Positions 21,001 through 27,000 of a stretch of DNA of 45,470 bases are shown piece after piece. The position numbers were made by a program. The stretch lies in IMG/VR virus record IMGVR_UViG_2537562188_000009, positions 1 to 45,470 of that record; one strand, given 5' to 3'. The stretch comes from a virus. Taxonomy: Duplodnaviria; Heunggongvirae; Uroviricota; Caudoviricetes. Numbering within the stretch: the first letter of the stretch is position 1; each line of letters begins with the position of its first letter.

Positions 21001-24000
21001 ACGGCCAGCCAATTTTCAGGAATGAGCCGTCAAGAAACATTTTATCGTGGACGTTGTTGTCATTACGGGAAGGACTGAGGCGCTTGCTGACCTCCGGACT
21101 GTGGCGAAACGTCCTGGAAAGACGCGTTCTGGAATGCTCACGCGCCTTCGTCTCAGTCATCTGCACCACCAGCATATCCGCCGGATCACAGATGATGCCG
21201 TACACAATCCAGCCGTCAATCAGCCCTTCGGTTTTCCCGGTTCGCGCAGGTCCCACAAACACCACCGCGTCATATTCACGGGCTGATAATGTATTAATGG
21301 GGTCAATCATATAGGGCGTCAGTGATGACTCCCACGGACCGGAAGTATTGGCTCCCCGTGGTACCCGCATATAACGCCTGATGGCTTCCGCTACTGGTAA
21401 CCGGCTGGGTGGGCGAAACAGCGAGGCCACTTCGCGCCAGATATCGGATGCGCGGCTATGGCTCTCGTTCACCTGATTCACATATCGGCCTCATCACAAC
21501 AGTCAATGACTGCCTTTTCCAGTGTGTCGCGGATCTCATCAACCACAATCTGTACTTCATTCAGTTGTGATGCGGTCCACCCCCTGTCCCTCTCCAGCCG
21601 GTCAGGCCAGGTTTCCAGTACCTGAACTATCGCTTTCACCACGACAGAAAAGGACCGCCTGACATCACTGACTGGCACAAGCTGAACAGTTTCATGCTGA
21701 AATTTAAGACGCTCGCGCTCGGACTGATACCATGCCTTACGAGCGTGAGGATCCATATCCTCATCTTCGGAAGATGGTGGTTTTTCCAGCAACGAAGTTA
21801 TCAAATCCGTCAGGAGATACAGTTTTTTCTTTTCATTACTGCCTGGTGCAAGAGGAACATCCGCCATTCTGGCGGCAACAGTCTGCCGGTGCAGACCTGA
21901 AAGGGCTGCCAGTTGATTAATATTTAACTTCATATTTTTCAGCTCGCCGTCCATTTACATCCCTCCACATAAACCGCAGAACAGAAGTGACTCTGTTTTT
22001 TTGTAAAGAAATGCCGCCATATAAAGATGTCGAACAAAAATCAACCGCAACCATCATCTTTTTAATGCTAAATACATTAAAAACAACAAGTTACACTAAT
22101 GATGATGATGACGATAAAATCACAAAAATGCGCTTTTTTCCGCGCCGCCCGCCCCGTGTTCAGGCCCACCCCACCAGGAGGACCCGCAAGATGATAATGG
22201 TTATCATTTGTAATATAGTCCGGTTTCTTCCACCATCGCACCGGACCAGCGACCATGAGGGGAGAACGCCGCGCTCCGTTTACGCGGTAAACCCCGGTGT
22301 GTATCGTTTTTGATTATCCCCGCACACTCGCGCAGAGGAGTCTCCCTGTCGGGCTGCGGTCTCTGTTAATGAGGGAATACAGCGACGATACGGCGCATCC
22401 GCAAAACTTAGTTCAGGCACTGAGTGCGGATATAGTCCTGTGCCCCTTCCAGCTGCTTCTGCATTGTCATCAACCGTTCTCTGAGGATGAAATAATCCCG
22501 TTCAGCGGTGTCTGCCAGTCGGGGGCCGGTTGCATTATCCACGCCGGAGGTGCCGGTGGCTTCACGCACGGTACCGGAGCAGGTGGCGTTGATCCGCAGG
22601 CGCTTACGACCAGCGGCAACATCAGCACGCAGAGTTTCATTTTCAGCTCTCGCATCGGCTAATTCCCTCGAGTATCTGGCATCAAGTGCAGCGACATCAC
22701 GCTGGCGCACCTGCATATCAGTAATGGTTGCGTTTGCCAGCTCCAGCTCTCTGGCTTTTTTATCGCGCTGCGCTTTATAGGTGATGGCGTTATCGCAGTA
22801 ATGATTCAGCCCCAGACTAAGCACACCACAGGCTACCAGCAGGACAATAATCACCACACACAGAACACGGTTCATATCACCACCAACGGATTGCCCAGAC
22901 CAGAACAGCAATGGCCACAATACGAATGGCAAAAGCTGCCGCTCTTGTTAAATCCAGACTGGCTGGCGTCTCCACTTCAATGCCTTTCATAATGGACAAC
23001 CTCAGAAAGAATCTTTTATACTTCCTCACAGGGAAAGCACCTCCCTACCCATAATTTCTCCCTTGCCTTATTCAAGGTCAGAAACACCAAACCCCGCTTG
23101 CTGCCAACAACCGGGGTTTTTACTTTTATTCACTTACATTTTGCCAGTTCGCAGGATTTCGTGTTATCCGTCCATGTTGGCCAATGTCATTTTTCAGCAA
23201 AATATTCTGCTTATCTGTCGATTCCCCAGCACGCCAGCGCGCTCTCCTGGTCACGACGGGATACCTGACCATAGCAATTATTTGAGCGGATACGGCAGTC
23301 TCTGCCACCGTCCTTAATCCACCAGCGAATCGCTTCACACGCTCCCCTGCGATCGCCTACATTAATTCGTTTATAAAACGTCGACGGGAAACACTTACCG
23401 GGGCCAATGTTATACGGGCAGAATGACGCGATCCCCGCTTTCTGGGGTTCAGTCAGTGGCACCCGGATGTTTTTCTCCACCCATGCCAGCGCCTTATCAC
23501 GCTCAATGGCGTTAACCTGGTCGCATTTCCCCTTCGACAACTTCATGCCCGGGACGACAGGTTTGCCATCCACCCTGGTGGCACCACGACAAATGGTCCA
23601 GATACCCGCACCATCACGGTATGCCGTGGTGTGGTTGCCTTCTTTTTCATCCAGAAACTGGTCGAGGATTTCAGGCGCAGAAGCCCCTGCGGCAATCAGC
23701 GCCAGAACGGCAGCCGACAGGCCGTATTTGATTTTTGTGTTCATGGATATATTAAATATTCAGCCGCTGTCCCAGGCCCACTAAATACGCACTTTCAGAT
23801 AAGTCAGTCCGGGATGAAGCCAGTAAGCCGGCACTTTTTTAAAAGGCGGATTATCAAAATCACGAAGAAGTGCCTCCCGCACAACTGAATCCTTGTCCGC
23901 ACCACTGGCCAGCGCTTCAATCTCAGCGGCTACCTGCAGATACCCCATGCAACGACCAATGCGCTGCATCAGCCCCTGTTTTTTATTGTTCTTCAGGTAA

Positions 24001-27000
24001 TCAATGGCAAATTCAATGAGCGTCTCACTGTGCTGGTGCGATGGCAGTGTTACTTTTCCATTTTCTGATATGGTGATTTTCCCGTCATCACCGGATACAA
24101 CAAAGGATGGGCGGTTACACTCCCATTCCAGCTCACTGCAATTATCATTATGAATACTGAAACACTCTGCGAGATTTCTGCTCATCACTTTCCGACAATA
24201 ATCGTCAAACGCAGCAAACTGCTCATCGCGGCGTTTGTTTGCATCTTCAGAAGGCATCAGCGCCGACAGTTTTTTATTCAGTTCAGCAATTTCATTTTCC
24301 AGACGACTGAAGCGCTGATTCATTTCTTCATGGTTCATCACCTACTCTCCCCGTGCCGCCTTACGCCGGTCTTCTCTGATTTTGAAATACAGGTTCGTCA
24401 GATATGTCAGCAGACCAAACAGCAGACTCCCCAGCACGCCTATTGCCGCCCACTGAGACGGGGAAACCCTGTCCAGCAACTGCAGGAACCAGTAGCCCGT
24501 TCCCACCGCTGACGTGGTGTATGACACACCTGTTGTGATTTTTTCCATCTGGTACATACCCCGTCTCCCGCAATCCGGAAGCTCACAACATGAAAAAGGC
24601 CGCCAGTGCTCCACTGACAGCCTCGTGTAGTTACTCTGAGTGCTCAACAATTCCCTGTAAAACGTGTTGACATTAAGAATCGCTTTTGTGTAGAAAATTT
24701 ACCAATATAACAATAAAACCTCACCGCAGTTGCATTTCCACCAGAAGCATGGCGCATTTCTCCCTGTGCTTACTGGTGGATTTTTTTACCCCGCAAATAC
24801 CGCTGACACATATTGATAATAAGAATATTTTTCATTTAAAAACACTCACTGCACCATTTCTTCGGAGTGTCCATGGCGCTCCCCCACCAGTCGCTTACGG
24901 CAACTGGCGTTTTTTAATTTCTTACCGTTATTATTGACAACAGGAAGTGTTTTCATTAAAAAGAAGGCTCTGCACGAAAGAATCTTGCTTTTGTATTTCC
25001 ATGGGTATTAGCACCGCCAGCGTCCATTCCTGTCGCTGGCGGCTTTTTTTTATCATACCGCAGTGTCTGTGCTGTTCACTTCCACCGCAATGCTGTCAAT
25101 CAGCAGCGTATACGTCGCCGATTTTGATATATCGGTCAGTTGCAGTTTGTCCACCGCCCCCGATGCCGGTGACTTCACCAGTGTGAACGCCGCTCCCCGT
25201 TTCTCATCCAGTACTGGTGTCACCTGAATGCTGTTGTTTCCGGCAAACTCAAAAGCCAGCGTGTGCCATCCGTTATCAAAGACCCCGAATGTATCCAGCT
25301 TCGCATTCGGCTTCCTGTGATGCATCGCGTTCAGGTTCGTCGTATCCGTCTGCAGGAAGAAAGACATCAGCATATCGTTACCTTCTCCTGACAGCATCAC
25401 CCCCTCCGGCAGGGACGACAACTGCCAGTAAATGCCCAGGGCAAACTGATTCGGCACCAGTGAACCCGGCAACTTAAACCGTACGCTCACACGTCCGCCC
25501 TTCTTCAGTAACTCCGCCCCCTGTCCGGCTGCATCATGCTCCAGAAACCAGATGTGGTTTTCCGGTTTGTTCAGTTGCAGAGCCTTACCTCCCGTAGCCC
25601 CCGCATCACTGACCACCGCTTCAGCAATGTTTTTGTTAACACTGTCTCCGCCCGCCGGTTTGTGATAATAGCGCCAGCCCTGTGATGCCAGGTCTTCGCC
25701 GGATGCCAGCAGACTCATCAGGGTTCGGTTACTGACCGGGGCTTCCGCCTCTCTCTCCGGACCTTCACCGGAAGGTACGGTGGGCTTCACCATATCAGGC
25801 TGTTTTCCGGTAATGAATTCAGCGGTTCTCCCAGCGTGCACCAGAATCGCCGTTGCCAGACGGTCGGAAATAATCCCGCGGCGTGCCCAGGTGCTGAAAT
25901 GGCTCGCCCTGTCCTGTGACGTCCAGGTGGCTGAGCTGTCACGCCATTTCGAACCGTAATATCCGATACCCGGAATGTCCGGGTCTTCTTCCGGTTTGTT
26001 CGTCGGCACATTCACCCCGTTCTCATCCGTCATGAACGGTACGAAATGGATATTCTTTTCCGTTTTGTTTTTATAGCTGCCGTACACCGTCTGGTACGTG
26101 GATTCGTTCTTCTGCTTCCAGAAATACGTCGTGTCCCCGCATATCCAGGGAACACCGCCAGCAGAGCCACCAACGCACTGGCCTGCCATATCCGCCAGGT
26201 CTGCACGGAATTTATCAACCAGCGCGCCAAACTGTGCGGCGTGATTTACCGGCGTACCGCCAAAATCAAATTCCCCCTGCATCCACACCACGGCAAACAG
26301 CACATTTTTCGGGTTCTTCTTCAGTGCTGCTTTTGTTCGACCGATAAGGTCCTTATACAGCGGCTTGTCCACACCCCAGCGCGCTGAATTCTCCGAGGCA
26401 CCACTCGCGTCACTGTATGTGCCATCAGCTCCGGTGGTGAACGCTGAACCACCACGACAGCACGGAACCAGCAGAATGCCCGCATTCGCCGGTATAAACG
26501 GCAGCAATTTTTTGGCGATATGCAGCCCCTGCCCCACGGTACCGTACTGCCCCTTTGACAGGTCCGCTTTCGGATGGTTAAGGCGGCTCATGTCCTGCAC
26601 ATCATGCAGACAATGGTCCGCCGGAATGATGTCGTTATATTTGCATGCTGCACCGCCCGGTGTCACCGTACTGCGGCGCGCCAGCTGCTTAATACGCGGG
26701 TCCGGACGGTCATATGTCTCCGGCAGCGGAAGACCTTCACCATACGACATGCCGTTTGACTGCCCTGCCAGAACCACAACAAAGTAATACCCGGGGTCGC
26801 TGGTGGCGCTGATTACTGCACCTTCTCTACCTGTCGGCTTCACCACAACAGGTGTGCTCACATCACCTTCTGCGACAATCGCCTGAATAAGTGCTGCGCC
26901 ATCATCCGTATACGAAGAAAACGGCCCGCCGTATGGTTGCCATCCTTCACGAATTTTTTGAGCAAGTGTATCAGCAAGGTCTGACGGCGATGCCGCCCTG

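Follow-up and report, generated by a model that had tools for sequence, protein, structure and literature searches.

The lysis cassettes closest to the one analysed here differ in what stands next to the endolysin gene R. In phages 933W and GER2 the holin gene S and R are adjacent, 4 nucleotides (nt) apart; in the Escherichia coli K-12 cryptic prophage Qin the order is essQ-ydfR-rrrQ; and in the Shiga toxin 2 (Stx2) phage 86 it is S-YdfR (268 amino acids, aa)-R-ant-Rz. K-12 YdfR binds RNase E's catalytic domain in two-hybrid and pull-down experiments and co-purifies RNA (PMC13232886). This RNase E interactome paper was the only one found in the literature on ydfR, DUF1327 and the RefSeq accessions, and the intercalated genes are not discussed in a comparative paper on Stx phages (PMC8136144). 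A small protein from another lysis cassette, the disruptin gp28 of phage phiKT, has 56 aa and a net charge of +7, is hydrophilic, lacks a membrane segment and has no reported homologues (bioRxiv 10.1101/515445). Here we describe the cassette of an Stx2-converting lambdoid prophage contained in 45,470 nt of DNA from IMG/VR record IMGVR_UViG_2537562188_000009 (the window, by which we mean the whole stretch analysed; its genes are read from the minus strand). In this cassette an open reading frame (ORF) of 185 codons, ORF185, lies between S and R, and a terminator-like hairpin together with a 50-aa membrane ORF, small50, lies between R and the spanin gene Rz.

Judged from the sequence comparisons below, the arrangement is ordinary lambdoid mosaicism and will not surprise phage genomicists, and both genes are already known as hypothetical proteins in RefSeq and PHROGs. 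What is added here is a dissection of ORF185 into domains, the rejection of a deletion scar between R and Rz, a likely corrected start for the small RefSeq protein, and a lead concerning the small peptide.

Extra genes at both junctions of R

We compared the window with the best 80 matches by identity in IMG/VR, whose holins are at least 97% identical to that of the window; 65 of them hold complete S, R and Rz genes. S and R are contiguous (a gap of at most 4 nt) in 11/65 cassettes and 358–1316 nt apart in the other 54, while R and Rz are contiguous in 4/65 and separated by at least 297 nt in 61/65. With 597 nt from S to R and 335 nt from R to Rz, the window falls into populated classes at both junctions. 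The first junction is occupied by DUF1327 alone, by the C-terminal domain of ORF185 alone or by both, with or without a reverse-strand ORF of phrog_1853, and the second by small50, TM44 and/or Ant in many combinations. By this count, extra genes at both junctions are the norm in E. coli prophages with this holin. An earlier note on this DNA had taken a contiguous S-R-Rz order as canonical, which the counts given above and the gene order of Qin contradict. It had also proposed a comparison of related cassettes, which found both junctions to be variable among the 65 complete ones, and it was right to regard both pieces as additions to phage-21/933W-type layouts and the 185-aa gene as one without a defined function. 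We think it rather probable that the S-R and R-Rz junctions are two independent cargo slots of the Q-dependent late operon and that the window has a common occupant in each.

In a Salmonella prophage (L013:5917-6846) a gene for an N6/N4 DNA methyltransferase lies between endolysin and Rz, so the R-Rz junction would be a cargo slot outside E. coli too.

The R-Rz gap as an alternative cargo

Counted from where R stops to the ATG of Rz (22875), the gap is longer than the 280 bp previously given, a figure that needs a spurious TTG at 22932 as the Rz start. Directly after R, positions 1–91/100 of the query match 933W-type phages at 89–94% in blastn, and where the hairpin begins, at its 5' edge (23116–23125), the homology to 933W and phage 86, which bear ant, comes to an end. 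Is the rest of the gap then the scar of a lost gene, as the earlier note had suggested? In that case ant or another accessory gene would have been lost and the small ORF would be a chance frame; ant does occupy the same slot in 933W and phage 86, and the Prokaryotic Genome Annotation Pipeline (PGAP) calls just a 37-aa hypothetical protein in the gap. However, tblastn detected no remnant of Ant, TM44, DUF1327 or phrog_1853 in the window (the best match for Ant, with an expectation value E of 0.59, lies outside the gap), the segment is intact in about 790 complete E. coli genomes and at 463 IMG/VR loci, where relatives of small50 are encoded, and small50 shows strong purifying selection, a conserved start and stop and membership of a PHROG family. 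Since the window shows no trace of ant or of other occupants of the slot, and since the segment holds an intact, selected gene and homology stops at the hairpin, we reject the deletion scar, which is largely refuted and which we regard as extremely improbable. As far as the alignments tell, the gap is an alternative cargo, made up of a conserved terminator-like hairpin and a small tail-anchored cationic membrane protein.

The hairpin has its arms at 23119–23112 and 23096–23089 and reads AAACCCCG-G-UUGUU-GGC-AGCAA-G-CGGGGUUU, that is, a stem AAACCCCG/CGGGGUUU plus an inner stem of 5 base pairs, with a folding energy of -22.4 kcal/mol and a z of -2.1 on the sense strand. It escaped the terminator scanner, which has a loop limit of 8 nt. 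The earlier note had described it as a terminator-like hairpin of the plus strand, where the tail TTTTTACTTTTATT is indeed a good T-run, but the structure is symmetrical with respect to strand, and the sense-strand tail is TTTTGTGTTT in most relatives, weakened to TTTGGTGTTT in the window. The hairpin also accompanies small50 into a cassette with a GH108 endolysin, in which its loop and inner stem differ.

small50 as a conserved membrane peptide gene

small50 matches phrog_4493 at E 1.4e-24 (residues 1–50 to profile positions 1–54 of 56) and phrog_1115 at E 2e-11, and both profiles are matched by its 60-aa homologue in PhiR12_2, which is ATG-initiated and begins MEKYKR. The peptide has 9 Lys and Arg against 3 Asp and Glu, a net charge of +6, and a single hydrophobic segment at residues 29–48 (maximum 2.1 in a 19-residue Kyte-Doolittle window), which contains a conserved internal Arg or Lys and beyond which there is only RWW. 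An assignment as i-spanin was considered and rejected, only three residues following the membrane segment.

Two starts are available, GTG 23029 for 50 aa and an internal ATG 22990 for the 37-aa form that PGAP annotates. At 80 IMG/VR loci selected for small50, which we also examined for the preceding endolysin and the next gene, the relatives keep M-x-KYKR at the 50-aa start; the codon two before KYKR is mostly GTG, with ATG in its place in two lineages, in a single member of each. Because relatives conserve this motif and switch between GTG and ATG there, small50 probably starts at GTG 23029 and not at ATG 22990. The 37-aa single-pass ORF of the earlier note is therefore real as a membrane ORF but more likely has 50 aa, and its TGA (22879–22877) does not overlap the Rz start, as had been reported, since one base lies between them (TGAtATG). 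All the cassette features that the note described do exist, on the minus strand; the gap length, the stop/start overlap, the ORF length and the account of the hairpin are what had to be corrected.

In E. coli 120899 (L016) a copy located after a GH108 endolysin has 26 differences from small50 in 153 nt; 20 of them fall on third codon positions and none on second ones. This leaves five amino-acid changes, namely four I/L/V swaps and R-to-G at residue 2. The ratio of nonsynonymous to synonymous changes (dN/dS) is 0.04 against this copy and 0.18 against the copy from an M15 cassette, with an overall range of 0.04–0.27. A scan of genome contigs for small50 confirmed no relative. By the pattern of substitutions, taken together with the conserved start and stop and the context, small50 is a real gene under purifying selection.

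In E. coli JJ1887 (L018:697-1260) the R-Rz interval contains a tandem array of four small single-pass membrane ORFs. With recurring motifs of the type ..LI(R/T)..AFAI(R/K).VA.., they have the look of diverged paralogues, which points to duplication and diversification of the small-peptide family within this slot.

The plus strand of the gap raises the further question of whether hairpin and small ORF form a type I toxin-antitoxin-like pair, in which a plus-strand RNA would silence a toxic peptide in the lysogen. A promoter-like site on this strand (Table 1) is followed about 100 nt downstream by the terminator-like hairpin with its plus-strand T-run. The RNA predicted from this site to the hairpin, about 105 nt long, would cross the small50 start and, from near 23029 to the hairpin, pair with the ribosome-binding site and start codon of small50; it folds with a z of -3.3. 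Synonymous changes are fewer in the overlapped N-terminal codons (1/12 vs 16/37, Fisher p 0.037), and in size and hydrophobicity small50 resembles type I toxins. However, promoter-like sites occur at chance level in this region (4 found vs 3.4 expected in a consensus scan), an Rfam scan of 21900–25200 returned only a chance-level match to Esr41, and no sense-strand promoter was found for the peptide, so there would be nothing to silence in the lysogen. A recombination boundary, or the Shine-Dalgarno sequence of the internal start, could account equally well for the scarcity of synonymous changes. A toxin-antitoxin function thus appears very unlikely to us.

small50 in cassettes without Rz/Rz1

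Among the 80 loci selected for small50, the gene is preceded by an R21-type lysozyme in 50, by a GH108 endolysin in 14 and by an M15 endolysin in 13, and in every case a single nt separates its stop from the following ATG, that of Rz or of a 60-aa lipoprotein. No Rz was found in the GH108 and M15 loci (27/80); there small50 is followed, at the Rz/Rz1 position, by a lipoprotein of 60–72 aa with an LVGC lipobox (phrog_7528). Since small50 keeps a fixed place between the endolysin and the outer-membrane-disruption gene with three endolysin types, we suggest that it may be an accessory factor of the envelope-disruption step, a proposal that is plausible but still tentative.

Examples of the lipoprotein cassette are found at L016:1180-1537 and L078:2474-2831 (E. 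coli 120899 and IMG/VR loci) and at L017:1127-1532. After the lipoprotein come iss/bor on the opposite strand and then terminase genes. At 8 IMG/VR loci the phrog_7528 lipoprotein also occurs downstream of an Rz.

Could the role of small50 be more direct? The hairpin and small50 might constitute a new kind of envelope-disruption factor, which may replace Rz/Rz1 in the GH108/M15 cassettes and assist the spanins in Stx phages, possibly in two forms from the dual start (50 and 37 aa) and with or without the phrog_7528 lipoprotein; we would not expect this to be the case. Much the same improbability attaches to a disruptin-like or spanin-substituting disruptor of the outer membrane, possibly acting with phrog_7528 and redundant with Rz/Rz1 in the window. 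Such a disruptor is suggested by the similarity in size and charge between small50 (50 aa, +6) and phiKT gp28 (56 aa, +7), and by the occurrence of small50 and the lipoprotein exactly in the place of Rz/Rz1 in 27/80 loci, before iss/bor and the terminase genes. Yet gp28 is hydrophilic, whereas small50 has a clearly hydrophobic segment with so little beyond it; the mature lipoprotein, at about 30 residues, is too short for a periplasm-spanning complex; intact spanins coexist with small50 in the window; and the GH108 and M15 prophages may simply be defective.

ORF185, a module of YdfR-family proteins

The protein between S and R had been called unrecognised in the earlier note. It does belong to a family: phrog_1085 matches ORF185 at E 7e-111, over profile positions 117–296 only, and in E. 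coli O91 RM7190, where the DNA is 100% identical, PGAP annotates it as WP_001367839.1. No Pfam (E ≤0.01), NCBIfam or PADLOC family was matched beyond noise. A search of 5.8 billion proteins gave 152 matches, all from E. coli where the source is named. They comprise 185-aa proteins that are 92–98% identical and represent hundreds of member sequences, and also proteins of 287–296 aa annotated as 'YdfR family' or 'DUF1327 domain-containing', whose C-terminal ~180 residues align to ORF185 with 80–87% identity. DUF1327 is present in these long relatives (for example in P0009 at E 4e-35), and ORF185 showed no match to this domain (PF07041) in the Pfam scan at E ≤0.01. BLASTP produced no alignment between ORF185 and K-12 YdfR (103 aa), which matches only the N-terminal 74 residues of the long YdfR-family proteins. 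Since K-12 YdfR corresponds to the N-terminus of the long proteins and not to ORF185, we conclude from these alignments that ORF185 is the non-YdfR half of the fused proteins, consisting of a helical hairpin and a conserved C-terminal domain.

ORF185 is a soluble protein with an N-terminal helical hairpin (residues 3–57), a low-confidence linker (54–73) and the conserved C-terminal domain (~76–185), which carries the motif GRCMGYLQVAAEIEA...DFDNPPFKK.P..W..PG..YLK.RI. Fifteen columns are invariant across the E. coli and Salmonella homologues, including G128, R129, L134, Q135, P165, K167, W173, P176 and Y180. The AlphaFold2 model has a predicted local distance difference test score (pLDDT) of 78 overall and 82–95 in the C-terminal domain; an input of 19 E. 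coli sequences had given 62, which rose to 78 when the Salmonella homologues were added. Foldseek with this model gave no fold match (best E 2.3 against PDB and 0.35 against BFVD), and the best E in a profile search of PDB sequences was 0.08. The homology and structure searches that the earlier note had called for thus lead to a known family, phrog_1085, but neither to a fold match nor to a defined function.

An exhaustive hidden Markov model search of 1.84 billion representatives returned only 41 clusters for ORF185, and therefore no distant annotated relative, while a profile search extended the family to homologues in Salmonella enterica. Within the reach of these searches, only prophages of E. 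coli and Salmonella carry the family. ORF185 DNA occurs in 875/5426 complete E. coli genomes, with a coverage of at least 80% in 262. ORF185 is under purifying selection, with dN/dS against relatives of 0.15–0.54, the top value coming from a 99%-identical pair. The Salmonella prophages have the homologue flanked by the Q antiterminator/HicAB on one side and the holin on the other, instead of by holin and endolysin, and judged from this placement the family tracks the promoter-proximal late region and not the S-R junction itself.

A reverse-strand ORF of about 104–105 aa (phrog_1853) often follows the ORF185-family gene in Salmonella prophages and accompanies it in E. coli Stx phages too, as in phage 86 and Stx2_12E129; examples lie at L001:2421-2735, L002:2588-2902 and L013:4722-5039, all on the minus strand. 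The window has no such ORF. The pairing suggests a two-gene module.

The holin TAG (24344–24342) abuts the GTG-ATG of ORF185, with GGAG upstream, which makes translational coupling of ORF185 to S plausible, as the earlier note had proposed for its 186-aa gene. Does ORF185 then set the timing of lysis? As a cytoplasmic partner of the pinholin or of the signal-anchor-release (SAR) endolysin it could be kept at a fixed ratio to S by the coupling. The start abuts the S stop in the window and lies 3–4 nt after it in E. coli relatives, the S-R slot is filled in 54/65 cassettes with this holin, and the modelled N-terminal helical hairpin could mediate protein-protein contacts. On the other hand, the Salmonella homologues lie upstream of different holins and are uncoupled, there is no S-R gene in 933W, GER2 and 11/65 cassettes, and profile and structure searches found no similarity of ORF185 to known antiholins or lysis regulators. 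We consider a timing regulator unlikely and rank it second, after an accessory role in an RNA pathway.

Proposed roles of the two cargo genes

In the mechanism that we propose, ORF185 would be a soluble cytoplasmic protein translated right after the holin gene. It represents a free-standing module of coiled coil and C-terminal domain, which in many prophages is fused behind the DUF1327 (YdfR) domain. That the two modules are found in one and the same slot, both singly and joined, makes it probable that they share a pathway. As K-12 YdfR binds RNase E and co-purifies RNA, ORF185 could be a non-essential late protein directed at a host cytoplasmic target tied to RNA metabolism, and not a lysis effector; this is our first choice for ORF185, although we hold it with considerable doubt. 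In the second slot, the mobile unit consists of the terminator-like hairpin and small50, a cationic, tail-anchored membrane peptide of 50 aa. Polymerase modified by Q would pass through the hairpin in the gap, and small50 would be translated directly upstream of the gene for outer-membrane disruption that comes after it.

Several points weigh against these proposals. The IMG/VR sample of holin-matched cassettes is ranked by identity and is probably redundant. ORF185 lacks DUF1327, the domain that carries the published RNase E contact, so that its connection to the RNase E pathway is made through domain fusion only; its C-terminal domain has no structural or sequence relative of known function among those found in our searches; and the tight coupling to the holin gene in E. 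coli also fits a role in lysis timing. As for small50, an antisense frame that shares third codon positions with it (22911–23054, plus strand, with equivalents in L016, L017 and L008) is also open, with a dN/dS of 0.10–0.29, and because of this the selection statistics alone do not pick the coding strand. The antisense frame is open in all relatives, at lengths of 47–126 aa, and its boundaries are not conserved. We treat it as a by-product and favour the sense strand because there the start and stop are conserved, one base always separates the stop from the ATG that follows, substitutions are of a conservative kind and paralogous small membrane ORFs are found in the slot.

Stx release depends on this lysis cassette, and for this reason genes embedded in it and co-expressed with stx could affect the timing of toxin release or the phage yield. 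Three leads stand out: ORF185 as a free-standing C-terminal module of the YdfR family, linked by domain fusion to an RNase E-binding domain; a strongly conserved 50-aa membrane peptide located where spanins are missing in other cassettes; and the likely corrected start codon of the small RefSeq protein.

Cassette layout and neighbouring features

The genes of the cassette were called by ORF listing, direct reading and profile scans, and are collected with their neighbours in Table 1.

Table 1. Positions of the lysis cassette, its cargo and the surrounding features in the window.
Feature	Position	Strand	Remarks
Q-region genes and three tRNAs	29222-29473 (tRNAs)		first in minus-strand gene order
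stx2A	28172..29131	-	next after Q-region genes/tRNAs
stx2B	27891..28160	-	
NanS-p-type esterase	25053..27080	-	DUF1737, SASA and DUF6645 domains
Lysis cassette	between NanS-p-type esterase and small terminase	-	
S, S21-type class II (pin)holin, 71 aa	24342..24557	-	dual start MYQM (MYQMEK); PF04971 E 9e-33; phrog_20/9876; RefSeq homologue WP_000284510.1
ORF185	23781..24338 from ATG (185 aa) or 23781..24341 from GTG (186 aa)	-	phrog_1085; occupies S-R slot
R, SAR-type phage lysozyme, 177 aa	23211..23744	-	PF00959 E 1e-23; phrog_7
Post-R segment, ~90 nt	23122..23210	-	common to nearly all related cassettes including 933W
Terminator-like hairpin	23089..23121	strand-symmetrical	marks 5' edge of variable cargo; conserved in relatives (alignment)
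small50, cationic tail-anchored membrane peptide, 50 aa	22877..23029	-	phrog_4493, phrog_1115
Antisense promoter-like site (speculative)	22993..23022	+	TGGACA-18-TATACT; 10/12 matches
Rz i-spanin, 155 aa, intact	22408..22875	-	PF03245 E 6e-50, profile positions 1-125 of 126; phrog_13
Rz1 o-spanin lipoprotein, 61 aa	22470..22655	-	embedded in Rz; PF06085 E 2e-21
DUF1441 small terminase	21478..21954	-	after lysis cassette

Between nanS-p and the holin gene (24605–24914, minus strand) there is a third variable slot, in which relatives carry DUF1378 and DUF826 genes. In the window these ~310 nt are identical to O91 RM7190, hold no annotated gene and show no similarity to the eight reference cassettes compared. 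On the coding strand, some 40 nt upstream of the holin start, there is a terminator-like hairpin of 13 pairs (24596–24624, minus strand) with TTTTCATGTTG after it; it might act as a terminator subject to read-through or, as a structure, influence the translation of S. Judging by its Asn/Ala pattern, the Stx2 B subunit (Table 1) is probably of the Stx2c/Stx2d type and not Stx2a.

Comparison with known systems

ORF185 resembles Qin ydfR and gp05 of phage 86 ('YdfR family') in its place between an S21-type holin and an R21-type lysozyme and in a start within a few bases of the holin stop. The 268-aa protein of phage 86 also contains a local match to it, with 83% identity over 115 codons. Unlike YdfR, ORF185 does not contain DUF1327, by which YdfR is defined and through which it is reported to contact RNase E.

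In the second slot the closest parallel is the antirepressor (ant) cargo of 933W and of Stx2 phage 86, which like that of the window fills the R-Rz slot right after the shared post-R segment. The cargo of phage 86 comprises a different terminator-like hairpin, ant, and then a 44-aa single-pass membrane ORF (phrog_4906) just before Rz. The cargo of the window is unrelated to these in sequence, having no ant and a small peptide of another family (phrog_4493).

Morons, in the Hendrix-type definition, are extra genes inserted where related phages have two genes side by side, and they come with a promoter and a terminator of their own. The earlier note had offered a moron, next to a lysis regulator, as an explanation of the inserted gene. 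The extra cassette genes do resemble lambdoid morons in that they are inserted between otherwise adjacent neighbours and vary independently of them. Unlike a classical moron, they have no promoter-like site on the coding strand: a consensus scan of 21900–25100 found no sigma-70-like site on the minus strand, although weak promoters may escape such a scan, and no terminator after ORF185. The absence of a coding-strand promoter-like site argues against a classical, self-transcribed moron, and ORF185 and small50 appear instead to depend on late transcription and on being coupled to the flanking lysis genes.

Like the disruptin phiKT gp28, small50 is small and strongly cationic, comes from a lysis cassette and is predicted to be membrane-associated; unlike gp28, it has a hydrophobic C-terminal segment of 18–20 residues and, in the window, stands beside intact spanins.

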